A DNA stretch of 64,000 nt from Chitinophagaceae bacterium (GTDB lineage: Bacteria > Bacteroidota > Bacteroidia > Chitinophagales > Chitinophagaceae). This document shows positions 1 through 31,398 of the stretch, piece by piece; position 1 is the first letter of the stretch; every line of letters starts with the position of its first letter. Under the pieces are notes generated by a model. It ran no database searches. It saw only the letters and a list, made by a program, of their open reading frames with translations, and had not been told where the DNA came from. Made by a program: the position numbers and the translations under genes. Where the stretch lies: NCBI GenBank assembly GCA_965279015.1, contig OZ257130.1, positions 575,723 through 639,722 on the forward strand, written 5' to 3'.

Positions 1-608
1 TAAATAAAATCCCGCGACTCCTGACCGGTTCCGAAAAGTTCTATCACTTCAAAGGCGGTAGCTTTCTTATAGATATCCCAAAACAATTGTTTTTTTAATC
101 CCGGGCCATAGGCCGAGAATATTCGTACTGAGCAGCTGGGAATTTTATAATAGTTATAAAATTCCCGGGCAATTAGTTCAGCCTGAAATTTATGCTCGCC
201 ATAAGGAGAAACAGGTTGTGGCACCATCATTTCATTTACTGGCAATTCAACTGGATTGCCATAAACAGCGGCGCTGGATAAATTCAAAAATTTACAGCCT
301 GGCTGGTGGATACGTATCGCATCAAGCAATTTGAATACATTGAAGGCGTTTAGCGTGTAATCACGCAGTGGATTCATAAGCGAATCACTTACGTTTGCGG
401 CTCCGGAACAATTGATGCAAGCGTCAAACCGGAAATCACGGAACAGGCTATGATAATCGGCATTCGTAGCATCGATCAGGAAATAATTCTTCCGCGAATA
501 ATCCACGGCTACATCGCATTCAAATACTTCGTATCCGAACCGTGGCGGAAACTGAGAAGCTACCGCGCTTCCGATAAATCCTTTGGAACCTATAACAAGA
601 ACTTTCAT
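1..608 (-). CDS. NAD-dependent epimerase/dehydratase, partial (runs off the window start; absent from the ORF track)
   Basis: Manual translation from ATG at 608: MKVLVIGSKGFIGS (GxxGxxG), later LSSAAVYG, PYGEHK (YxxxK) and RIFSAYGPG. Lies directly downstream of the flippase. Confidence 0.9.
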   Translation of the reverse strand, partial: MKVLVIGSKGFIGSAVASQFPPRFGYEVFECDVAVDYSRKNYFLIDATNADYHSLFRDFRFDACINCSGAANVSDSLMNPLRDYTLNAFNVFKLLDAIRIHQPGCKFLNLSSAAVYGNPVELPVNEMMVPQPVSPYGEHKFQAELIAREFYNYYKIPSCSVRIFSAYGPGLKKQLFWDIYKKATAFEVIELFGTGQESRDFI

Positions 609-618
609 AATTTAATTG

Positions 619-2019
619 TCAGGAAAGCCAGATCCCTTTAGCCTTGCCTGATAGTATTTTTTTTACCTGTACAATACATAATAAAGATCCCGGCAACAAA
701 CTCATCATATTAGCTACGCAAATACTGGCTAATCCAAGCTGGGTATGACGAAATAGAAAAATGGTTGCGGGTACAGTGATAATTCCCCCGCAAATCGCCG
801 AGTATAATTGGATATTCACTTTTCCAATAGCATTTAAAAAATATGAAAGGATATTATTAAACGCCGCGTGAAAATTATACAGGATCAACGTAATTGCGAA
901 TACAGGTGTAAGACTGATTGTTTCCGAAAGCCACCATTTGCTAATTGGTTCATAATAGGCAAGCATTACAAACCCCAATAACAACAAGCCAATATTCAGG
1001 AACACCATTTTCCGGATCATGTTGGCGATCCAATTTTTATCTCCCTGGTACCAGGCATTGGTAAATGCACCCCATAGTGGTGTGAGAATTATCCCAAATA
1101 ACATCAGGGATACTCCGTAATAACGGCTGCCGATATTAAATAGGGTTACTTCTTCCATAGAAAATAATTTGGCGATAATAAAATTGGAAGAAGAAAACAT
1201 TATCAATGCGGCTATCTGCACAAGGAAAAACTTTACGCCCAGGCTGAGCAAATCTTTACGCAATCCATGATCTACCATTCGGTGAGAAGGACGGAGCCAT
1301 TTATATCTTCCCCGGAAAAGTACATAGGTATATCCCACAAAAACCAATACGGGGGCCGCGCAAATGGAAAAAGTGATCAAATAAAAATTTGCGATTCCTG
1401 AATGATAAAAAAAATAAATCAATCCGAGTGTTAGCAGGTTAGAAACCGGCATGATCACATCGTTGAGATAGGATTGCTGATCCGCCAGCAGAATAACGCC
1501 AATCAATTGCAAAATGAAACGAACAATGAACAATGCGATCAGTAAATACATGCAGGAGTTAAGCCCTGGAACATCTGCCCTGTTTATACTCAGGGTATCA
1601 TACCAATTTATAAAAGGATGTGCTATTGTGTAAAGCAATAGTATTCCTAAAAAGATAGACGCGATATAGAAGTAAGCGGTACTGACATATTTCCGCCCCA
1701 GCATCCGGTCATTTTCCGCAATGCACTTGCCTAATTTGGTGCGTAACCCATTCCCCATTCCAATATCAAAAAAAGCGATCCAGTTAACCACCGATGTTAT
1801 GGTTAAGATGATTCCATATTGTTTTTTCCCAACTGCTTGTAAGCTGATAGGGACGAGTATAAAACTTACCACGATGGAAATCCCTTTCAGGAAAAGAGAA
1901 AGAAAAGTATTACGAAGCACGATGGCAGTCCTGCCATTAATGACTAACCTGCTATAAATTGCCTTGATCATACTTCTTTTATTTGTAAGAGGAGCGACTC
2001 CATTACCTGGTTTTTTCAC
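619..2019 (-). CDS. wzx: Polysaccharide flippase (Wzx/MATE-like); start possibly 1971
   Basis: About 12 hydrophobic segments, DxGxGNGLR motif, located in an EPS locus. Confidence 0.85.
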   Translation of the reverse strand: MKKPGNGVAPLTNKRSMIKAIYSRLVINGRTAIVLRNTFLSLFLKGISIVVSFILVPISLQAVGKKQYGIILTITSVVNWIAFFDIGMGNGLRTKLGKCIAENDRMLGRKYVSTAYFYIASIFLGILLLYTIAHPFINWYDTLSINRADVPGLNSCMYLLIALFIVRFILQLIGVILLADQQSYLNDVIMPVSNLLTLGLIYFFYHSGIANFYLITFSICAAPVLVFVGYTYVLFRGRYKWLRPSHRMVDHGLRKDLLSLGVKFFLVQIAALIMFSSSNFIIAKLFSMEEVTLFNIGSRYYGVSLMLFGIILTPLWGAFTNAWYQGDKNWIANMIRKMVFLNIGLLLLGFVMLAYYEPISKWWLSETISLTPVFAITLILYNFHAAFNNILSYFLNAIGKVNIQLYSAICGGIITVPATIFLFRHTQLGLASICVANMMSLLPGSLLCIVQVKKILSGKAKGIWLS

Positions 2020-2032
2020 AATAACTACTCTG

Positions 2033-3064
2033 TCACGCGTAGTGAGGTTCTATTTTTTCTAGGCGGTACCCTGCCCGTTTCAAGAGTTTTACCAGGCCAA
2101 TCACAAGCTTCATCTGTATTCTTTTTATCCGTGTTGGATTCTGTTGACGATGGTGATAGATCAACCGATCGTAATTTGAATTGAGATAAGAAACGATATA
2201 TGTATATACGGAAACATCGTGATTCATTTCCGAAAATTCAGTTTTAACCAAAACTCTATTGTCATTCATTCTCTTTTCCTTTTGCTCAGATATTCTGACA
2301 TCCTGTAATACCCATTCCTTGTGAATAACCGGCAACTTGGTATAAAATTCCTTTATATTGATCTGTTTAAGAGGCAATACTACGCTGCAACTATGGCTGG
2401 GTTTCCGGTAAAGGTTGAGATGATACTTTTCCGCCAGCAAGGACATCACAGACTGATCGTGCCGATGTTCAATAAAACCTGCCAGGTTTCCCTTCCCATC
2501 CACATTCGGGCTATCGGTAAGAATGTGGGCATCTTCACAAAATTTCATCCATTTATTTAAAATGTGCAAGGTGAATTTTGTTTTCCGGAAAAGCATAAAA
2601 GCCGCATCGCATTGCAGGCTAAACCAATAACGCTCGCTATCACAGTCCATCCGAACAAAACAATCCCTCTTGGTAAAATGCGCATTGAGGAAATTATGAT
2701 TGGCGAATAAAAGAACCGGCTCCTTCTCTCTGCAAAGATCTATCAAGGGTTGAAGGTTATCGATGATCTCAATTCCGCAATCTGAATAAATGACAATATC
2801 ACCATCATTCAATGACTTCATTACCTCCAGTATGATATAGGGCTTCCACAGCCAATAGCCGATCCCTCTTTTCTGTGAAAGAATGGATTGATGCCTGGTA
2901 TAAAAAGGAGTAGTAAGAATATCTTTTTCATAATCAAAAGTGCGGATATCCTGTATCCCAAATTTTTTCGCCGACCGGTTTAAATTTAGCCGGCTCTTCT
3001 CAAACGGCTTGTTTGATAAATTGGCAAGTACAACTCGCATATGGTTAGGTTTAATGGGTATCAA
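2033..3064 (-). CDS. Putative glycosyltransferase-like protein (WKPYII / YxDxG / HRHDQS family)
   Basis: Motifs GYWLWKPYII, VIYSDCG and EHRHDQSVMS; EPS locus context. Confidence 0.6.
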   Translation of the reverse strand: MIPIKPNHMRVVLANLSNKPFEKSRLNLNRSAKKFGIQDIRTFDYEKDILTTPFYTRHQSILSQKRGIGYWLWKPYIILEVMKSLNDGDIVIYSDCGIEIIDNLQPLIDLCREKEPVLLFANHNFLNAHFTKRDCFVRMDCDSERYWFSLQCDAAFMLFRKTKFTLHILNKWMKFCEDAHILTDSPNVDGKGNLAGFIEHRHDQSVMSLLAEKYHLNLYRKPSHSCSVVLPLKQINIKEFYTKLPVIHKEWVLQDVRISEQKEKRMNDNRVLVKTEFSEMNHDVSVYTYIVSYLNSNYDRLIYHHRQQNPTRIKRIQMKLVIGLVKLLKRAGYRLEKIEPHYA

Positions 3065-3103
3065 TTACAATATGGCAGGATCCCTTTCTTTATGCAACTC
3101 TTT

Positions 3104-4480
3104 TCAAGCGCCGGAAAATTTAAAAAAATACCAATACAGGAAATAACCTATCCCTGCAATTGTCATGGCCACAGGATAGAGCCATCCGGTTTCTTTCATG
3201 CGTGGTAAAAGCAATAAGAATAAGATCATCATCAATCCCGACAAATGACGTTCTCCTATTTGTGTATTAAATGAATAAGCCAACAATAAAAAGGCAACGA
3301 CAGTAAGCAATGCAAAATCTGAATGCGACTTCAGTGATTTTACTAACTCCACAAATACAAGTATTCCCAACATAGTGAACCCTGTCATCAGGAAAGAGGT
3401 AATAAAAGGCTGAATTTTTCCGGGAATGGTAATAAGATGAAAAACAAGGCCAGTAAACAGACCAGGGCCCTGGTAATCGCTGTATATTGGTTTGAATGCC
3501 AGTACCAGCAGGGTTGATAAAAAAAGAGAAGCAATCGCTTCCATCCGTTTAATTTTCTTTCGCCGGAAAAAAATATACGGTGAAAAATAGAAACCTGTAA
3601 CGAAGAGAATAGCTACAACCGTAGAGGGATAAAACGCCAGTGAATGACTGCGGAAATTGGGATGTGTCAATCCACCCCAATAAAAGAATAATGCTAGTGG
3701 TAATAATAATGGTATTGCCAGTAATAAATTGGACAAGAATAATTGTTTAAACGATTGCCTTCGATTCTTTTCTTTTCCAATAAGAAAAGAGAGCCCGCGG
3801 CAAGCAATGATCGCGAAAGGAATTACGATGAAAAATTGCTGGCAAAGTACCGCCATGGAAAAAGAGAGTCCTGTTAAAAATTCTCCGGACAAAGAAACTT
3901 GCTTTTCCTTTTCTGTTTTTTGCCAAAGCCACAATGCGAGTGCCAGAAAAAACAATCCATAGTTGATTGCATAAAAGACAAACGCGTTGACAAAAAAATA
4001 AGGGTAAAGAAGAACGGAGAATGAAAAATACTTTGAAACTTTATACGACTCCAGCAATTTTACAAATAATAAAAAAGTCGCGAAGGAGATGAGTGCAGTA
4101 ATAATTCTTGCCAGTGCCAGCGAAGGTGAAAAGAGTTTAGCCATTACCGATACAATAAAATACGGCAAGGGGGTATTGGCGGCTGAATAATGTTCGTTGA
4201 ATAGGGCCTCCCAGCCATTATTATAAAAATTCAACAGGTTAGGATAATGAAATACTGTTTCATCAAGAGTATAGTTACCTACTTTCAATAGGGATAACAA
4301 CAGGAAAAAAGAAAATATTCCCACGCTCACTCCGAAATAATTCCCGGATAGCTTCCTGCTGAAACCGTCTTGTCCTGAAAAAACTGATAAAGCTCGGGTC
4401 TGTATCCCGTTCGACTGCCGGATAATCATCTGGAGTAACTTGTGTTTAGTAAGATAGTAGTTCAGATAACCGGTAGTCAA
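3104..4480 (-). CDS. Polytopic membrane protein, GT-C-like glycosyltransferase or polymerase
   Basis: More than 10 TM segments; DETVFHYP motif after the first TM; EPS locus context. True start may be downstream (about 4429). Confidence 0.6.
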
Positions 4481-5549
4481 CGCTCTTTGTTTTAAAGAGG
4501 GTGATGTCGCTCTCCATCATCTCTTTAATCAACTCTTCGAGATTATACTGCGGTTCCCATCCTAATTTTGTTTTGGCTTTTGTTGGATCCCCTATCAGCA
4601 ATTCAACCTCCGTTGGACGGAAATACATTGGATCAACGGCCACCACTTCTTTTCCGATAGGCAGGTTAAATTCTTCGTTATCGCAGGCAACAACGATCCC
4701 TCTTTCCTTAATTCCTTCTCCAATGAATTCTACTTTTATCCCCGCTTCCGCGAAAGACATTCGAACAAAATCACGAACCGGTGTAGTAATGCCGGTTGCG
4801 ATTACATAATCCTCCGCTGTATCCTGTTGCAGTATGCGCCACATGGCATCTACATAATCTTTGGCATGTCCCCAATCTCTTTGTGAATCGAGATTACCCA
4901 GGTATAAGCAATCCTGAAGACCCAGCGCGATAGCCGACACGGCTCTTGTGATCTTACGGGTTACAAATGTTTCTCCACGTATAGGGCTTTCGTGGTTGAA
5001 TAATATTCCGTTGCAGGCAAACATTCCATAAGCCTCCCGGTAGTTTACCGTAATCCAGTAAGCATATAATTTAGCGACCGCGTATGGACTGCGTGGATAG
5101 AAAGGAGTTGATTCTTTTTGAGGAATCTCTTGTACCAGTCCATACAATTCGGAAGTGGAAGCCTGGTAAATTTTAGTTGATTTTTCCATACCCAGTATAC
5201 GAATGGCTTCTAATAACCGAAGCGTTCCGATACCATCGGCATTAGCTGTATATTCCGGAGTATCGAAACTCACTTTTACATGGCTCATGGCTGCCAGGTT
5301 ATAAATTTCATCAGGTTTTGTTTCCTGTATAATTCTTATCAGGTTGGTGCTATCGGTCATGTCGCCATAATGCAGTTTGAAGCGCAGATTTTTTTCATGA
5401 GGGTCGGCATAGAGGTGATCAATACGGGCTGTATTGATCAGCGACGAACGTCTTTTAACACCATGCACCATATATCCTTTTTTCAATAACAACTCCGACA
5501 GGTATGCTCCATCCTGTCCGGTAACGCCTGTAATTAATGCTGTCTTCAT
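4446..5549 (-). CDS. gmd: GDP-mannose 4,6-dehydratase
   Basis: [42 protein letters not shown]. Confidence 0.98.
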
Positions 5550-23951: not shown

Positions 23952-24152
23952 GAACAGGCAAACCCCTCCTCCTGTATGGTCTCTAAATGCAAAGAATATC
24001 TGTAAAAAGCCTATAAACCGGGCTTTTTATAAGAATTTTTTTTTAACTTAACATAACATCATACCGCCCCCTCCCCCCATGTAACGCTTTCCGTATCATT
24101 TCAGTTTTAAAAGGCCCCGAGGTAGCAATTAATTTATTGCTAAACTATTGTT

Positions 24153-24854
24153 ATGCTTGAAATTGAAATCTATTTACAGCATAAAAATGAGCTACAAAAG
24201 AAACTGGTAGACCTTCTCGCCCGGCAAATAGATGCAAGTGTAGAAACCGAAGGCCCATATAGAAACGAGATACGAAAAACAGAACGTCTACTCAGAGAAG
24301 CCGATGAAAAAGTTGCTAAGCTCTCAAAAGAAACAATATTTAAAGATGAAATAATTGTAGCACCCGGCGCCATCAAAACAATTAAAATATTTCTTGCTTC
24401 CTCCTCGGAATTAAAAACAGAACGCGATCAATTTGAAATATTCATAAACCGGGAAAATAATGAACTAATCAATAAAAATGTTTTTTTAAGATTGGTGGTA
24501 TGGGAAGATTTTATTGATGCTATATCTGAAACAAGGTTACAAGATGAATACAACAAGTCTATCCAGCAATCGGATATCTTTTTAAGTCTTTTCTATACCA
24601 AAGCCGGGAAATACACCGAAGAAGAGTTTGATGCGGCACTGACCAATTTCAAAAAAGAAGGCAAACCCCTTGTCTATACGTATTTTAAAAATGTTCCGGC
24701 GGGCACGCAGAAATTAAGCGAAGAAACCAGCCTGTTAAATTTTAAAAAAAGACTTTCGCAGATCGGGCATTACCTTACCTCTTTTGAAAATATATATGAC
24801 CTGAAATACCAGTTTAAAATGCAATTGGAAAAAATCATCCCTCAATTCATATAA
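24153..24854 (+). CDS. N-terminal helical domain plus TIR-like (DUF4062-like) domain protein
   Basis: KIFLASSSEL...LVVWED...QDEYNKSIQQSDIFLSLF...KYTEEEF: flavodoxin-like beta/alpha pattern with a conserved Glu. Confidence 0.7.
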   Translation: MLEIEIYLQHKNELQKKLVDLLARQIDASVETEGPYRNEIRKTERLLREADEKVAKLSKETIFKDEIIVAPGAIKTIKIFLASSSELKTERDQFEIFINRENNELINKNVFLRLVVWEDFIDAISETRLQDEYNKSIQQSDIFLSLFYTKAGKYTEEEFDAALTNFKKEGKPLVYTYFKNVPAGTQKLSEETSLLNFKKRLSQIGHYLTSFENIYDLKYQFKMQLEKIIPQFI

Positions 24855-24857
24855 TAC

Positions 24858-25667
24858 ATGACAGAAGAACTCAGAATACAAGAAGCGCATTTAAAAAAGC
24901 TTTATAAAAACCTTGAGGAACTTCTGGAAGGGCAAAGGAATGCAGGTCCTGGGACAGAAGGCGATTATAAAAATCTAATCAATACAAATGGTAATGATAT
25001 TTCCGCTACGAGGAAAAAAATCGAACTCCTGAAAAACCAGGAACAAAACAATAAACCCGAAACACTCTTTATCTATATTATAACCAATACCAATGAGGGA
25101 ATTCGCTCTGCCATTGGTGCAGATTTGTTTGAGGTGTTGAATCCAACTAATCATGATGACGAGGATTGTTCAAAGTGGATCCCATTTACCAGAGACATGA
25201 ATAGCATTTGCGAACTTATTAACGAGTTAAGGAACAGGGGATATGTATTTAAAGAAGAGTATCTGACCGGCAATATAAGCGCGCAAAAGGAAGTGAGCAT
25301 AGAGGACGATTTACAGATCAGTATCGCTGTAATCGATCTGCTGTCTTTAGATAAAGAGAATGAAAAAATCGCGGGCATCTTTAATAACAAACTCGCCTGC
25401 AGTGTAATTACTCCTATTGCTGATTCTTTGCATGAAAAGGTAAAAGAATTTATGATTCAAAAAAGAAAGGCTGTTTTTACGAGGCTGGAATATCGAATAG
25501 CCAATTTGGACATTGATAGTTATAACCCGGAAATCGCAGGAAAATTAACTTTTATTAATATTCTTCACAGAATTTTCAAAACGAAACAACCTGTTATCGG
25601 AATTATTAAACCCGATGGTTCTGATATTCGTGCCCGTTTGAGTACACAAAACAACCCATCCATTTGA
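24858..25667 (+). CDS. Uncharacterised protein: N-terminal helical domain shared with 24153..24854, FxsC-C-like C-terminal domain
   Basis: N-terminal similarity seen directly; KWIPF, IAVIDLLSL and SVITP recall the FxsC C-terminal domain (inference). Confidence 0.6.
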   Translation: MTEELRIQEAHLKKLYKNLEELLEGQRNAGPGTEGDYKNLINTNGNDISATRKKIELLKNQEQNNKPETLFIYIITNTNEGIRSAIGADLFEVLNPTNHDDEDCSKWIPFTRDMNSICELINELRNRGYVFKEEYLTGNISAQKEVSIEDDLQISIAVIDLLSLDKENEKIAGIFNNKLACSVITPIADSLHEKVKEFMIQKRKAVFTRLEYRIANLDIDSYNPEIAGKLTFINILHRIFKTKQPVIGIIKPDGSDIRARLSTQNNPSI

Positions 25668-25679
25668 TTAAACTGCTAT

Positions 25680-28556
25680 ATGAAAATAATTTCTTTTTAT
25701 TCATACAAAGGAGGAGTTGGCCGGAGTCAGCTCTGCTCAAATATTGCCGCTTACCTGTTCTATCATAAAGGGAAAAAAGTGTTGCTATGGGATTGGGATT
25801 TTGAAGCGCCCGGTCAGCATTATTTTTTTGGACTTAAGAATAAGGATATTCAAAAAGCCGGGACACTCGAATTACTCGAAGAATATATGATTACCATGCG
25901 CAAAGGAGGGGAAATAAAACCTTCGGATCTTACTTATGTTACCGCAGAAAAAAATATTACCCCACTCCGATTTCCTGATAGTAGCAATACTGGTAAAACA
26001 GGTTGTATAGATTTACTGGCCGCCGGAGCATACGAAAATGATTTTGGGTACCGGGCAAATAACTTTGATTGGTTCGAGTTCTACAGCATGATGGATGGTG
26101 CCAATTACATAGAACATCTTAAAGAACAATTGGGGACCCTGGGATACGACTATATACTCATTGACAGCCGAACCGGTATCAGCGATTATTCCGGTATCTG
26201 TAATATTCAACTCCCTGCAATTAATGTTCTGGTTGTTGCGCCGACTCTTCAAAATTTTGAGGGCTGCAAATCCATCATAGAAAAAATTCAAAAGGCAGAA
26301 TACCATAAGATAAAAAAAACCAAACCGCGCATTTTGCCAATACTGTCCCGGTTGGACTATAGTAATCCTAATTACAATGAATGGGTGCTTCGATTTTCGG
26401 AATATTTTTCGGCCACTATGATAAACCTGGATGACGAGTTTGATCTTGAGTTCCTGCCGGAGATATTTTCAGATGTCTATTTTAAAGATACTTTTCTTCC
26501 CTATACTCAAGCGATTTCCGCCGGTGAAAATATCCTGTTCAGTTATCAACGAACCTATACCAGCACGGATCACACAAAACCTTTCCGGAATATCGCAGAA
26601 TATATTGAAAGTATAAACGTACAGGGTTATATCAGCTTCTATAAACGACTGGATGAAGATACCTGGGTCAATTACGCAGATATTGCGGAGGAGAAAAGCG
26701 AGCACAGAAAAGCCGCCATTGCATACACACAAATTGGAATCAAACAAAACGATACTGATAGAAAACTAGAATACTTTAATAAAGCCATTTCGATCGATAG
26801 CGGTTATCCCCAACCATATTACTATGGCGGCAATAGCTATTATGTAAAGGGAAACAAGGAAAAGGCAATTGAGTTTCTCCAAAAATATGTAGACATAGTT
26901 CCCGATTATTATCTCCCCTGGTTTAACCTGGGATTGATCTGCTATGAATCAGGATTAAAGGAAAAAGCCATCGAATGCTACAATATAGCGATCGAATTAA
27001 AACCTGATTATCACCTGGCCTGGAATAACCGCGGATTGATCTATTATGAAGACGGACAAAAAGAAAAAGCCATCGAATGCTATAATAAAGCGATCGAATT
27101 TAAACCCGAATTCCCCCAGCCCTGGTACAATCTGGGATTGATCTATAATGAAGAGGGTCCAAAAGACAAAGCCATCGAGTGCTATAATAAAGCGATCGAA
27201 TTTAAACCTGATTATTACCTGGCATTGAATAACCTGGGATTGATTTATAATGATATGGGAGAATATGAAAAAGCCATGACTTATTATAACAAAGCCATCG
27301 AATCTAAACCCGATTATCACCCGGCATTGAATAACCTGGGATTGATTTATGAACGACTAGGACAAAAAGAAAAAGCGATCGAAGCATTCAATAAAGCTAT
27401 CGAGTTAAAACCCGACTATCACCTGGGATGGAATAACCTTGGATTGATTTATGACCAGTTAGATCAAAAGGAAAAAGCCATCGAGTGTTATAAAAAATCA
27501 ATCGAGTTAAAAAACGATTACCCCCTCAGCTGGTATAACCTGGGATTAATGTATGAAAAGACAGAACAAATAGATAAAGCTATAGAATGCTATAGTAAGT
27601 CGACTGAGTTAAACCCCAATTACTCACTCAGCTGGTATGGCCTGGGTTTAATGTATGAAAGGAAAGAAAAAATAGATAAGGCTATTGAATGCTATAGTAA
27701 GGCAACCGAGTTAAAACCCGAATATCCGCTAAGTTGGAATAACCTGGGATTACTCTATGAAAGGACAGAACAAAAAGAGAAAGCTATTGAATGCTATATC
27801 AAGGGGACCGAGTTAAAGCCCGACAATCACCTTCCATGGCACGACCTGGGAAGAATATATAATAGTATGTCTCAAACCGAACAAGCCATCTATTATTACG
27901 ACAAATCCATCGAAATTAAACCTGATTACTATCTTTCATGGAACAATTTGGGGGTGATCTATTATCGGCTGGGACAACAGGAAAAGGCTATTGATTGTTA
28001 CAAAAAAGCGATCGAGTTGAAATCAGATTATTTTAATTCATGGTTTAACCTCGGTTTGATTTATAATGATATGGGAGATACAAAAAAAGCAATCGAAGTC
28101 TATAACAAAGCCAGTGAACTAAATCCAACAGATTATGGTGTGTGGGTGCAACTGGCGGATATTTACAATAATTTGAAACAAACAGAAAAAGCAGAAGAGT
28201 TCTATAAGAAAAGCATCGCTTTAAATCCAACCTCGTCCGAAGTTTATAATACTTACGGATTTATGCTGTTCAAGTTGGGAAAGGCAGATCTAGCAGAAGA
28301 CTATTTTCAAAAAGCGGTGGAGTTGGGATCTAATACACATGGGAGTATGAACCTTGCCAATATCCGTTTTATCAAAGGCAACTGGCAGAAAGCAGTTGAA
28401 CTCTATAAAAAAAGTCTCGATCACTTTAAAGAAAAAGATCAATTCTGGACAGGAATCGATGGCGATTTTCAATACCTGCAACAGTATAATATTTCAAAAC
28501 AGGATTTTGAAAAAATGAAATTCGAAATTTCCCAAACTACTGTTCCGGTAAGTTGA
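25680..28556 (+). CDS. KGGVGR-variant ParA/MinD-type ATPase fused to about 16-17 TPR repeats
   Basis: FYSYKGGVGRS, WDWDFEAPG, DYILIDSRTG; 34-aa repeats W.NLGLIY...G..EKAIECY.KAIELKPDY. Confidence 0.9.
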   Translation: MKIISFYSYKGGVGRSQLCSNIAAYLFYHKGKKVLLWDWDFEAPGQHYFFGLKNKDIQKAGTLELLEEYMITMRKGGEIKPSDLTYVTAEKNITPLRFPDSSNTGKTGCIDLLAAGAYENDFGYRANNFDWFEFYSMMDGANYIEHLKEQLGTLGYDYILIDSRTGISDYSGICNIQLPAINVLVVAPTLQNFEGCKSIIEKIQKAEYHKIKKTKPRILPILSRLDYSNPNYNEWVLRFSEYFSATMINLDDEFDLEFLPEIFSDVYFKDTFLPYTQAISAGENILFSYQRTYTSTDHTKPFRNIAEYIESINVQGYISFYKRLDEDTWVNYADIAEEKSEHRKAAIAYTQIGIKQNDTDRKLEYFNKAISIDSGYPQPYYYGGNSYYVKGNKEKAIEFLQKYVDIVPDYYLPWFNLGLICYESGLKEKAIECYNIAIELKPDYHLAWNNRGLIYYEDGQKEKAIECYNKAIEFKPEFPQPWYNLGLIYNEEGPKDKAIECYNKAIEFKPDYYLALNNLGLIYNDMGEYEKAMTYYNKAIESKPDYHPALNNLGLIYERLGQKEKAIEAFNKAIELKPDYHLGWNNLGLIYDQLDQKEKAIECYKKSIELKNDYPLSWYNLGLMYEKTEQIDKAIECYSKSTELNPNYSLSWYGLGLMYERKEKIDKAIECYSKATELKPEYPLSWNNLGLLYERTEQKEKAIECYIKGTELKPDNHLPWHDLGRIYNSMSQTEQAIYYYDKSIEIKPDYYLSWNNLGVIYYRLGQQEKAIDCYKKAIELKSDYFNSWFNLGLIYNDMGDTKKAIEVYNKASELNPTDYGVWVQLADIYNNLKQTEKAEEFYKKSIALNPTSSEVYNTYGFMLFKLGKADLAEDYFQKAVELGSNTHGSMNLANIRFIKGNWQKAVELYKKSLDHFKEKDQFWTGIDGDFQYLQQYNISKQDFEKMKFEISQTTVPVS
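26800..28430 (+). repeat. Coding 102-bp tandem repeats (TPR array)
   Basis: ga(a/c)aaagccatcga(a/g)tgcta at 26961, 27063 and 27165 (period 102). Confidence 0.9.
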
Positions 28557-28596: not shown

Positions 28597-31152
28597 TTAC
28601 TCGCTTACCACCGCCGGCACACTAATGCTTCCTCCATAAAACAATGCATTCAGGAATAGTTTATTGGTGCCGTACCAGGTTCCGCGGAAATTAGGATTAT
28701 CTGTAAATAAAATTACCCGGCCACTTCCTTCACTTCCCACCAGTATAGACGCTGAATTGCGTACACGTTTCAACGTGGTTGGGTGAATATAGCCGCCAAT
28801 CAGCGGGTCGCTTGTGTATTGTGCTATCGTACTATACGGATTGATACTGGGCTGCAAAAAAGTTAACCCGTTACGATACACAGAAACTTTTCGATCAGTG
28901 AATCCAAATCCAAGTGGATGTGTTGTATCCAAATCAACACGAAATAATGAACCACCCATTGCTCTGGCTCCTTCAATATGAACTGCCATATCATAGTCTT
29001 TGCGTGACGGAACTCCCTTACTGCTGTCGGATGGCAGTAACTTTTCCCTTGTAAATCCATTTCGAATGGCCCAGTCGGTTCCGGATTTAATTGTAATCAA
29101 AGTGTTTCCGTTCTGCACCCAGGCTTTTAATTTATCCGCGTTATTTTTATCTATCAACGCATAATTTCCCGATACCATGATAATCGTATTGTAACGACTG
29201 AGATCGGCACGATTAATATTCAACAGATCCAATTTAGTTATAGGCATCTGTAAGCGTTCATCCAGCAAATGCCAGATCTCTCCTGCTTCCGGAGCCGATA
29301 CGCCAGTTCCAACCATCAGTGCAACATTGGGTTTTTTCAACGTGCGAACATAGCCACTGCCCATATCAATACCACCCGAACTAAAACCCGTACTTAATGA
29401 ATAAATAACAAGACCTGCGCGTTTATTAACTTCGCTCACTAAGCGAAAAAGTGAGTCGGAGGAAATGCGTTGCAGATTTACCGGCAATACAATGGAACCA
29501 TATCCAAAATTCTTTGCGACCCCTTTGATCGTTGCTGAAAAGGGACGGAAAGCCGATTGTACAATAGCGCCCCCTTCCTGCAATTGATGTATCACCTGGT
29601 GAATATTATAATCTGTCGCCTCCATTACATAAGCATAATTGCTCTTTTCGACAGATGTAATCATTCGTGTCGGTAATGCAGTCAGCCTTTTGTCTTTCCC
29701 CAATGCTGTTTTTAATTCAGCATACGGCAAATTATACGCGTGTACAAGGCTCCAGGCAGATGCATCGTAAAATGAACTATCCCGGTAGGTAATTTGTTTT
29801 TCAAATACAGTGCGAACCATAATGTAATTGTCCTGGTCGCAGGGGACATAATAGGTTTTTTTTGATTCAAATTTTTTCCCATCAACAGTTACCGCATTTT
29901 CGTTTTCATATACTTCTATTTCGTGCAATAGGAGCATTGCTACAAAGGCCCTGGTTCTTGTTTCATCATTTACATCGCCAAAAACATATCCTTTAACCGC
30001 CGATTTAGCAGCCTGTTCTTTTGCTACCCGGTAAAATTCTTTCCGCAATTTCAACAGGTTATCTTTTTCCACCAGTGAGGCTCTACATGTAGTTAATGAG
30101 GCGATGAATTGATTACGGATGGTAAAAGCAAAGCTTATTGGAATGGTAGTGGTTTCCTGTAAATGCCCCCTCGAACTGGCTTGCTCGAATAAAAAACCTG
30201 CGCCTCCATAAAAGTTGATATAACTACTGCCATAGCCCGGGTATAATTTATCGTACGCCTCTTTGGTAAAATACATCGAACCAATTTTATCCGCCGCGGC
30301 GGCAAAATATTTTGCATACGTTGGATAAATGGTTTTGTATAAATAATCGGGTACAATTGGATTATTGCTTGCGTCTTCTCCCGGATCAAAATAAAAACTT
30401 GCATTGCTTCCCATTTCATGATGATCTGTCTGTATATAGGGTCGCCATTGATGAAAGAACTTTATCCGGTTCCTTGTTTCCGGGAAAGTTCCCAGGAACC
30501 AATCTCTGTTTAAATCGAACCAATAATGATTGAATCGACCACCCGGCCAGATTTCGGTATGTTCACGATCGAGAGGATCAGCTACTACCGGGGATGCCTT
30601 GTGCATATTTGCCCAATGCGTATGTCTGTCTCTTCCGTCGGGATTAATTACAGGATCCATCAATATCACCATCTCATTCAGCCATTTTATAGTTTCCTCG
30701 CTCTCCGATGCAGTGAGATAATAAGCAGTAAGCAGGGCAGCCTCACTGCTGGAGGGTTCATTACCATGAACATTATAGCCCATATGAATGACTAACGGAA
30801 CGGATTGAGTTGATCCACTTACTTGCCCGGCAAGATGTGCTTTACGAATCTCTTCTAACTTTGAATGATTAGCGGCAGACGAGAAAATAGCCGTAACCTG
30901 TTGCCGGTGCTCATAAGTTTCGCCGATGATTTGTAGGGTAACGCGATCAGATAATCGATCCAATTCTTTAAAATACTCAACCAGTTTATCGTGACGTGTA
31001 TGATGAGTACCAATCTCATACCCCAAAAAAGCGGAGGGAGTTGGGATAGCGGGGTTCATATTTCCCGCGTCCGGATAAAAATAAGCAGGTTGTGCATTTA
31101 CAATTACGCCAAAATAAAGAGCTATTAAAGCTAGAAAAATTCTTTGCAGCAT
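28597..31152 (-). CDS. M14 family zinc carboxypeptidase-like protein
   Basis: VHGNEPS, NPDGRDR, DLNRD, DHHEMG; signal peptide from the reassigned start MLQRIF (31152). Confidence 0.9.
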   Translation of the reverse strand: MLQRIFLALIALYFGVIVNAQPAYFYPDAGNMNPAIPTPSAFLGYEIGTHHTRHDKLVEYFKELDRLSDRVTLQIIGETYEHRQQVTAIFSSAANHSKLEEIRKAHLAGQVSGSTQSVPLVIHMGYNVHGNEPSSSEAALLTAYYLTASESEETIKWLNEMVILMDPVINPDGRDRHTHWANMHKASPVVADPLDREHTEIWPGGRFNHYWFDLNRDWFLGTFPETRNRIKFFHQWRPYIQTDHHEMGSNASFYFDPGEDASNNPIVPDYLYKTIYPTYAKYFAAAADKIGSMYFTKEAYDKLYPGYGSSYINFYGGAGFLFEQASSRGHLQETTTIPISFAFTIRNQFIASLTTCRASLVEKDNLLKLRKEFYRVAKEQAAKSAVKGYVFGDVNDETRTRAFVAMLLLHEIEVYENENAVTVDGKKFESKKTYYVPCDQDNYIMVRTVFEKQITYRDSSFYDASAWSLVHAYNLPYAELKTALGKDKRLTALPTRMITSVEKSNYAYVMEATDYNIHQVIHQLQEGGAIVQSAFRPFSATIKGVAKNFGYGSIVLPVNLQRISSDSLFRLVSEVNKRAGLVIYSLSTGFSSGGIDMGSGYVRTLKKPNVALMVGTGVSAPEAGEIWHLLDERLQMPITKLDLLNINRADLSRYNTIIMVSGNYALIDKNNADKLKAWVQNGNTLITIKSGTDWAIRNGFTREKLLPSDSSKGVPSRKDYDMAVHIEGARAMGGSLFRVDLDTTHPLGFGFTDRKVSVYRNGLTFLQPSINPYSTIAQYTSDPLIGGYIHPTTLKRVRNSASILVGSEGSGRVILFTDNPNFRGTWYGTNKLFLNALFYGGSISVPAVVSE

Positions 31153-31398
31153 AGTGATGGTTTTAATCGGGTTCTCTACTAAAACTACCAAAAAATAATA
31201 TTTAAGGATTGAGCTTTTTTCAAACGCCCTGCCCCCAAATACGCTTCGCATTTCATGCGAGAATTGATTATTATCAACAATTGGCATTCCAACTACCATA
31301 TAAACCCTTACAAAAACAAAAAAACTTACCCTCATATTCAATAGAACCCCCTGTTTTGCAGTTATTTAAAATGTTAGATATCCATTGTTGGAAAAACC

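Follow-up and report, generated by a model that had tools for sequence, protein, structure and literature searches.

A compact three-gene block at positions 24153 to 28556 of a 64,000-nucleotide stretch of a Chitinophagaceae bacterium (GenBank assembly GCA_965279015.1, contig OZ257130.1, positions 575,723 to 639,722 of the forward strand; hereafter the window) is probably a horizontally acquired abortive-infection cassette, that is, a conflict system centred on a ParA-type ATPase. Gene 1 encodes a predicted TIR-like effector that would degrade nicotinamide adenine dinucleotide (NAD+), gene 3 encodes a ParA ATPase fused to a TPR array, and gene 2 encodes a protein with a helical hairpin in common with gene 1 and a second domain of a new kind, which accompanies such ParA proteins as a constant partner. 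An initial annotation of the window had proposed a candidate undescribed conflict system of TIR-like, FxsC-C-like and KGGVGR ATPase-TPR genes between housekeeping genes; its anatomy is largely right and its interpretation is partly supported. The three co-directional plus-strand open reading frames (ORFs) lie exactly where it placed them and form a tight operon of 4.4 kb with gaps of 3 and 12 bp (Table 1), and gene context agrees with its view of a conflict-type cassette in which gene 2 serves as the constant adaptor or partner of the KGGVGR ParA-TPR protein.

The ParA ATPase and its TPR array

Residues 1-204 of gene 3 match NCBIfam NF047398 ("KGGVGR-motif variant AAA ATPase") with 124.9 bits against a cut-off of 90, and the same region scores 129.4 bits in a six-frame search of the genome. 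The Walker A motif SYKGGVGRS (residues 8-16) keeps the signature lysine and has an arginine in place of the P-loop lysine, the DxD sensor with the following PG reads DWDFEAPG, and the DhhhhD Walker B motif was read from the translation as DYILID. A recent computational study predicted ParA-centred systems termed TIR-ParA and TA-ParA (Li, Burroughs and Aravind, 22 Oct 2026, bioRxiv 10.64898/2026.10.19.760177); in this preprint, the immunity-associated ParA assemblage ConB2 is marked by arginine for the Walker A lysine and by PG after DxD. The Walker A arginine, the PG following DxD and the DhhhhD Walker B motif are all present in gene 3, which was assigned to the ConB2 class because it matches NF047398 above the cut-off and its motifs agree with the definition. 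The deviant-Walker-A ParA with a long TPR array, as first annotated, was confirmed.

The closest relative (GCA_025450795.1) has 93% identity to gene 3 over residues 1-350, whereas the TPR array is just 65-71% identical and five repeats longer here; the sensor repeats diversify fast, and their number differs between close relatives. About 5,600 relatives of the ParA region were found across public data, and their C-terminal modules are mostly TPR, with GH25, NB-ARC, nSTAND, Roc-COR, CHAT, TIR, DO-GTPase and ankyrin modules in others. Among 60 related genomes, one other (G041) has a ParA above the NF047398 cut-off, a 565-residue ORF scoring 177 bits (G041:C12:167416-167994, L032), and no member of the gene 2 family was detected there.

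A constant partner with a new domain

Gene 2 has no match in Pfam, NCBIfam or PADLOC. A word-based search yielded just one relative, and a full HMMER search was required to find 74 among 1.84 billion representatives, mostly of 250-300 residues. The AlphaFold2 model built from 52 sequences (predicted local distance difference test, pLDDT, 90.7) has a two-helix hairpin followed by a five-stranded alpha/beta domain, and it ends in a disordered tail, which is a candidate ParA-contact peptide. Modelled alone, the domain reached a pLDDT of 92.4 and a predicted template modelling score of 0.90. Its invariant residues are W107, P109 and D160, with N168, F175 and P186 near-invariant; it contains no invariant glutamate, and an active TIR-type NADase is therefore unlikely. 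Neither the full nor the domain-only model gave a significant PDB fold match (E<1e-3; best template modelling score ~0.4), the domain-only model gave none in BFVD at the same threshold, and the gene 2 profile returned coiled-coil noise alone, and no relative, from PDB sequences. The highest-probability fold matches were CheY-like receivers, the CpaE N-terminal pseudo-receiver and GTPase G domains. As modelled, with confidence, this flavodoxin-like domain appears to be new, having neither a named family nor a PDB fold match.

A diverged copy of the gene 1 TIR-like domain was considered for the C-terminal domain of gene 2 and rejected, as hhalign aligned the hairpins only. In P0065 and P0071 (L023 6001-8031), the gene 2 C-terminal domain stands behind an N-terminal region of ~450 residues, of which residues ~48-130 resemble positions ~158-241 of the NCBIfam family 'anti-phage protein ProA' (E 2.6e-7 and 1.2e-12).

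The label FxsC-C-like, given to gene 2 in the initial annotation, found no support, and this bears on an alternative in which genes 1 and 2 are a split FxsC. Gene 1 would be the TIR-FC part and the gene 2 C-terminal domain a very divergent FxsC-C, that is, an inactive TIR, the two being rejoined by the hairpin, so that the cassette would be an ordinary member of the published TIR-ParA systems, which are described as a TIR-FC, alone or together with FxsC-C, encoded upstream of a ParA whose sensor varies and can be GH25 (bioRxiv 10.64898/2026.10.19.760177). The gene order of TIR-like domain, domain X and ParA is indeed collinear with FxsC (TIR-FC, FxsC-C) followed by FxsT, and a Pedobacter relative couples genes 1 and 2 to a ParA-GH25, GH25 being a sensor listed for TIR-ParA in the same preprint. 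The gene 2 domain is also five-stranded and flavodoxin-like as TIRs are, with weak nucleoside-deoxyribosyltransferase-like fold matches. However, the FxsC C-terminal model TIGR04276 found nothing in gene 2, nothing at E<=1 across the whole genome and nothing in the fusion proteins; it touched one of the 52 gene 2 relatives, at E 0.02, and left the other 51 without a match. Moreover, no TIR structure occurred among the top 50 fold matches of either model, receivers and G domains ranking higher, hhalign detected no similarity between the C-terminal domains of genes 1 and 2, and the TIR-like domain of gene 1 is of the DUF4062 type rather than a 'conventional TIR'. Considering these results, a split FxsC is somewhat unlikely.

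The shared helical hairpin

The N-terminal domain common to genes 1 and 2, already noticed in the initial annotation, was recovered by three methods. BLASTP aligned the first ~40-60 residues with 16/38 identities (E 4e-4), a hidden Markov model (HMM) built from gene 2-family N-termini alone matched gene 1 (E 1.2e-15), and profile-profile comparison of the two families by hhalign gave a probability of 96.4% (E 1.4e-9), with the similarity confined to the first ~59 residues. The same HMM matched the N-termini of the upstream DUF4062 proteins in L016 (7e-19), L019 (1e-18) and L038 (4e-10) and the C-termini of the upstream 163-165-residue helical proteins in L020 (2e-12) and L021 (9e-10), and in L022 the caspase C-terminus matches the N-terminus of the adjacent gene 2 relative (E 3e-6). 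Altogether, the upstream gene carries the adaptor of gene 2 in six other loci. No named Pfam model of effector-associated domains (EADs) matches the hairpin, and Pfam EAD11 takes its place in 3 of the 52 gene 2 relatives. By analogy, the hairpin behaves like an effector-associated domain.

EACC1 was tried as the identity of the shared domain and rejected, since EACC1 is a transmembrane helix domain. The small proteins of L020 (5526-6017) and L021 (5502-5999) begin with a hydrophobic helix (MDISLIATGIITAIMPYL...) and have the hairpin at their C-terminal end; a role as membrane-acting effectors, or as additional adaptors, is possible.

The predicted TIR-like effector

Searches returned 793 homologues of gene 1. 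In a family of 44 members, 34 match DUF4062 (E<=0.01, best 2.7e-5), 28 match TIR_2 and 11 match the NPHP3 N-domain. FLASS (80-84), E86, R91, W117, E118, Q130, E132, Y133, E157 and E158 are invariant across the 44 sequences, and the invariant glutamates together with the DUF4062 matches of the family agree with the TIR-like (DUF4062) effector proposed at first. Relatives fuse the gene 1-type domain to LRR-Roc-COR, NB-ARC-TPR, EAD9 and EAD11. DUF4062, renamed NIR, is a TIR-like NADase required for phage defence (three 2026 preprints), with the catalytic glutamate ~80-110 residues into the domain (KpSwz E97, PsAvs2 E108, Vulcan E98, Vesta E103; 2026 preprints), and gene 1 is itself predicted from these family features to be an NADase. 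No solved structure was detectable for gene 1 by profile sequence search of the PDB.

A gene 1-type domain also occurs in another context within the genus. In genome G002, L015 (6785-10875) encodes a 218-residue TIR-like protein of this type, a 445-residue protein of unknown kind and an nSTAND1 NTPase whose C-terminal domain is Lcl, which looks like a different candidate defence operon with a gene 1-type effector domain.

Conservation of the gene 2-ParA pair

Gene context was read in nine distinct other loci with a gene 2-family protein and in one remote plasmid locus. In all nine, the gene 2 relative is followed directly by the gene for a KGGVGR-type ParA (KGGVGR or AAA_31), with different flanks each time; the genes do co-occur elsewhere. 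In P0035 and P0027, a single read-through protein spans the gene 2 part and the KGGVG motif, and a Pseudanabaena plasmid protein encoded upstream of a KGGVGR ParA has the WxPF...IIDxxS core in common with gene 2 (hhalign E 1.6e-5). Since a gene 2 relative adjoins ParA in the loci read, the pair forms the constant core, and effectors and sensors vary around it. A constant core with swappable effectors is, as judged from gene content, the pattern of a conflict system.

Three of these loci have further features. The Pedobacter aquatilis locus L038 (GCA_030409415.1, 799-8661) is a tight six-gene operon in which the gasdermin has 269 residues and the S8 peptidase 495, the 422-residue protein is alpha/beta-hydrolase-like, and the last gene encodes a KGGVGR ParA fused to a GH25 lysozyme; this ParA may control the gasdermin-protease pair as well. 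In L020, a system of GAP1-N1, DO-GTPase1, DO-GTPase2, GASH, TIR_2 and HTH proteins (Kaur et al. type; 1-4605) lies directly beside the gene 2-ParA-TPR cassette, an arrangement that is a defence-island-like cluster. In L039 (5018-8166), a 325-residue protein combines the gene 2 C-terminal domain with a longer, different N-terminal coiled coil and is followed by a KGGVGR-TPR protein, with no same-strand effector gene upstream of it.

The variety of partners also bears on a second alternative, in which gene 2 would be an inhibitor of the antitoxin type: pairing of the hairpins would keep the gene 1 NADase inactive until the ParA-TPR protein releases it on sensing, following the ternary logic of 'TA-ParA' (Li et al.). 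The layout would suit this, being ternary with ParA-TPR as the third component, and TPR is the commonest TA-ParA sensor in that preprint. In addition, a hairpin heterodimer could block the oligomerisation needed by DUF4062 NADases, and gene 2 is without an invariant catalytic-type residue set. Nevertheless, gene 2 relatives accompany effectors as unrelated as a caspase, a lipase and small helical proteins, and one inhibitor fold is unlikely to neutralise them all. Gene 2 contains no HTH or known antitoxin domain, and neither gene 1 nor gene 2 matches a toxin, antitoxin or HTH family in Pfam or NCBIfam. The existence of a gene 2-ParA pair without an effector gene (L039) and of read-through or fused gene 2-ParA proteins likewise speaks against an inhibitor, and this explanation is considered unlikely.

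Acquisition and rarity

The cassette is missing from the syntenic mqnC/DUF3817-M14 site in four congeners (G002, G011, G009 and G006). At the empty site of G002, mqnC and DUF3817 are followed by the M14 gene after 93 bp, and in G011 the M14 gene lies 173 bp after mqnC. Comparison with the empty sites places the left edge of the insertion near 24090; the insertion edges showed no direct repeats and no integrase or other mobile-element gene. Of 401 genomes sampled from the phylum, one contains the gene 2 family, and none of the 60 relatives does. The cassette is rare, was horizontally acquired and is inserted at a conserved site. The local AT-richness reported at first is real but modest: G+C is 0.350, 0.368 and 0.380 in genes 1, 2 and 3, compared with 0.404 in the window as a whole, 0.42-0.44 in the neighbours and 0.444 in mqnC, and G+C at third codon positions is 0.34-0.40 against 0.38-0.46 in the neighbours.

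A non-immune role, with ParA-TPR as a module that serves positioning or assembly in some housekeeping or developmental process and genes 1 and 2 as its cargo or adaptors, would agree with the classical positioning of cargo by ParA/MinD ATPases, with the frequency of TPR proteins in Bacteroidota gliding and secretion and with the housekeeping flanks, but it is very improbable because of the distribution (empty congener sites, and 400 of the 401 phylum genomes without the gene 2 family) and of a partner repertoire of death-type effectors (NADase, caspase, patatin, gasdermin), and the immunity-associated Arg-Walker-A clade of the ParA and its fast-diversifying sensor repeats also speak against it.

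Proposed mechanism

The domain assignments, the hairpin common to genes 1 and 2, the conserved pairing of gene 2 with ParA amid swappable effectors and sensors, and the insertion at a conserved site, all of them observed, suggest a scheme for the probable abortive-infection cassette, in which the ligand sensed, the direction of signalling, the physical contacts and the NADase activity of gene 1 itself are proposals. Gene 3 would act as sensor and switch: its TPR array would bind an invader-derived ligand, and the KGGVGR ParA domain would answer with ATP-dependent dimerisation or oligomerisation. Gene 2, as the constant partner, would couple to the ParA domain through its flavodoxin-like domain and perhaps its disordered tail, and its N-terminal hairpin would pair with the matching hairpin on the gene 1 effector. 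Gene 1, the predicted DUF4062/NIR TIR-like NADase, would be switched on by clustering on the activated ParA-gene 2 scaffold and deplete NAD+, halting the infected cell.

A more specific role of gene 2 is put forward tentatively. The protein may consist of two unnamed modules, namely an EAD/Death-like hairpin that recruits interchangeable death effectors and a flavodoxin-like, pseudo-receiver-like domain devoted to partnership with an immune KGGVGR ParA, which jointly turn the ATP switch of ParA into effector assembly. The partnership of the gene 2 domain with ParA may be likened to that of the atypical receiver domain and the ParA-like domain in TadZ/CpaE. If true, this would be a signalling route from ParA to effector assembly not yet shown for any ParA.

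Several points weigh against the abortive-infection scheme. Within the window, no known defence system adjoins the cassette. The Pfam matches of gene 1 on its own fall below threshold (TIR_2, 20.9 bits; DUF4062, PF13271, 18.3 bits against a cut-off of 24.7), and its E157/E158, ~81 residues after strand 1, are candidate catalytic residues by a position comparable with that of the validated E97-E108. L039 has a gene 2 relative and a ParA-TPR without a recognisable effector gene, and gene 2 may therefore do more than adapt; in L023 and L026, no adaptor common to the upstream effector and the gene 2 relative was found. The gene 2-ParA and hairpin-hairpin contacts are predicted from gene order, fusions and homology only. 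Finally, the literature searched, including the available part of the ParA preprint, contained no experimental evidence for any ConB2 ParA system, the published models being computational.

Flanking genes and feature coordinates

Both flanks of the cassette are of housekeeping type. Upstream lie mqnC (radical SAM and CofH_C) and a gene for a DUF3817 membrane protein, and downstream a convergent M14 peptidase gene. The terminator-like hairpin of the DUF3817 gene is at 24001-24031. Just upstream of the cassette, the intergenic region contains a poly-C tract, ccgccccctcccccca, at 24060-24080; a similar motif, CCCCCCAT(A/G)TAACG, occurs in a congener at the empty site and marks the approximate left insertion edge. 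The M14 ORF as listed (28597-31341, minus strand) has 914 residues and a TTG start, and its 5' end is probably over-extended; the orthologue in a close relative is called at 851 residues, and alignments with congeners start at residues 58-83.

Table 1. Features of the three-gene cassette in window coordinates, and gene composition of related loci.
Feature	Position	Strand	Description
Upstream intergenic region	23952-24152	+	Terminator-like hairpin, poly-C tract, then presumed cassette promoter
Gene 1	24153-24854	+	233 residues; N-terminal hairpin adaptor and DUF4062/NIR TIR-like domain (predicted NADase effector)
Hairpin adaptor, gene 1 residues 1-60	24153-24332	+	Common to gene 2; BLASTP, HMM, hhalign
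DUF4062/NIR TIR-like domain, gene 1 residues 76-233	24378-24851	+	44-sequence alignment; family Pfam matches
Gene 2	24858-25667	+	269 residues; constant partner of ParA protein
Hairpin adaptor, gene 2 residues 1-63	24858-25046	+	Helices 3-28 and 34-63; NAG..GDYxN at turn; AlphaFold2 pLDDT 92-98
Five-stranded flavodoxin-like alpha/beta domain, gene 2 residues 64-250	25047-25607	+	Domain-only AlphaFold2 model
Disordered tail, gene 2 residues 251-269	25608-25664	+	pLDDT <50; follows conserved I-x-N-x-I motif
Gene 3	25680-28556	+	958 residues; KGGVGR (ConB2) ParA ATPase fused to TPR array
ParA/MinD-type P-loop domain, gene 3 residues 1-204	25680-26291	+	NF047398 match and motifs
TPR array, gene 3 residues ~341-920	26700-28439	+	~16 repeats; Pfam TPR_1, 16 stretches; presumed sensor
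DNA tandem repeat inside TPR array	26924-27851	+	Period 102 (one TPR), 9.1 copies, 75% matches
L001			Syntenic copy in close relative; DUF4062 NADase effector
L016-18			DUF4062 gene, gene 2, 728-residue ParA
L019			DUF4062 gene, gene 2, ParA-TPR
L020			Small protein, gene 2, ParA-TPR; adjoins GAP1/DO-GTPase/GASH/TIR system
L021			Small protein, gene 2, ParA-TPR
L022			S8 peptidase, 344-residue protein, patatin, caspase, gene 2, ParA-TPR
L023			LCAT-like lipase, gene 2 fusion, ParA-TPR
L038, Pedobacter aquatilis			Gasdermin, S8, 422-residue protein, DUF4062 gene, gene 2, ParA-GH25
L039, Hugenholtzia roseola			Gene 2-like protein, ParA-TPR only

Comparison with known systems

The description of the system as undescribed proved too strong. 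KGGVGR/ConB2 ParA immune systems including TIR-ParA and ternary ParA-TPR systems are published in the preprint, and defence by DUF4062 NADases is the subject of three 2026 preprints. A PADLOC search had been expected to return nothing; this holds for whole systems, and fails at the level of domains. Residues 75-229 of gene 1 match the N-terminus of PDC-S60 (E 1.4e-13), covering only positions 3-167 of 906, and the P-loop region of gene 3 matches positions ~131-173 of the 438 of PDC-M28B (E 3e-15), both families being of different length and architecture.

The resemblance to the FxsC/FxsT pair stated in the initial annotation holds, and the same analogy is drawn in the preprint (bioRxiv 10.64898/2026.10.19.760177). 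The cassette resembles the TIR-ParA and FxsC/FxsT systems described there in its ConB2 (KGGxGR) ParA with a variable C-terminal sensor, here TPR, and in upstream genes that provide a TIR-type NAD+-degrading effector (predicted here) and a second, non-catalytic alpha/beta domain. Rare TIR-ParA variants are described there with EAD5 or EAD6, or with other effectors, which recalls the homotypic adaptors of the cassette, and relatives of the cassette use the GH25 sensor. Unlike TIR-ParA, the DUF4062/NIR domain of the cassette, which is not a conventional TIR, is on its own gene two genes upstream of ParA, the ParA-adjacent gene encodes a separate protein whose domain matches neither FxsC_Cterm nor TIR folds, and a STAND module, TIR-FT and FxsAB peptide genes are all missing. 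No FxsA peptide or FxsB radical SAM/SPASM gene is linked to the cassette; the one radical SAM gene nearby, mqnC, is found in congeners at the empty site too.

The ternary TA-ParA systems combine a ParA-TPR with a toxin-antitoxin pair in a predicted ternary complex with ParA as the switch (bioRxiv 10.64898/2026.10.19.760177). The cassette likewise has three genes with ParA and TPR in the third component, but it lacks a type II toxin-antitoxin pair or HTH antitoxin, and its upstream proteins share an adaptor instead.

EADs are short helical domains found both on a core component and on the interchangeable effectors encoded beside it, with the closest similarity between adjacent copies (Kaur, Burroughs, Iyer and Aravind, eLife 2020, PMC7159879). 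The hairpin is comparable in that it occurs on the core protein and on adjacent diverse effectors, at either terminus, in that copies next to each other are the most similar, and in that some gene 2 relatives have an EAD11 at its position. In contrast to EAD systems, the core NTPase of the cassette is a ParA rather than a MoxR-vWA, DO-GTPase or STAND protein.

Gene 1 appears to share its effector domain family, with a conserved glutamate, with the DUF4062/NIR NADase systems Swarozyc, Evangelion, Avs2-NIR, Vulcan and Vesta (2026 preprints), whose outcome is NAD+ depletion and abortive infection. These systems are single proteins or two genes in which the sensor is fused or the partner is a different one (AUX, STAND-TPR, HEAT or alkaline phosphatase), and, unlike for the cassette, no ParA switch or hairpin adaptor is reported for any of them.

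In summary, the cassette belongs to the ParA-centred kind that the preprint describes computationally, and what is new here is the separate constant protein with its hairpin adaptor and unmatched domain, neither of which is described in the accessible part of its text. ParA/MinD ATPases are textbook positioning machines, and only comparative genomics has so far suggested that they serve as immune switches. A constant partner made of a hairpin and a new domain would explain how one ParA-sensor core could drive NADase, caspase, patatin and gasdermin-protease effectors. With three genes in 4.4 kb, a clean empty-site control, an NADase-family effector and obvious point mutants, the cassette offers a practical test of ParA-triggered abortive infection.

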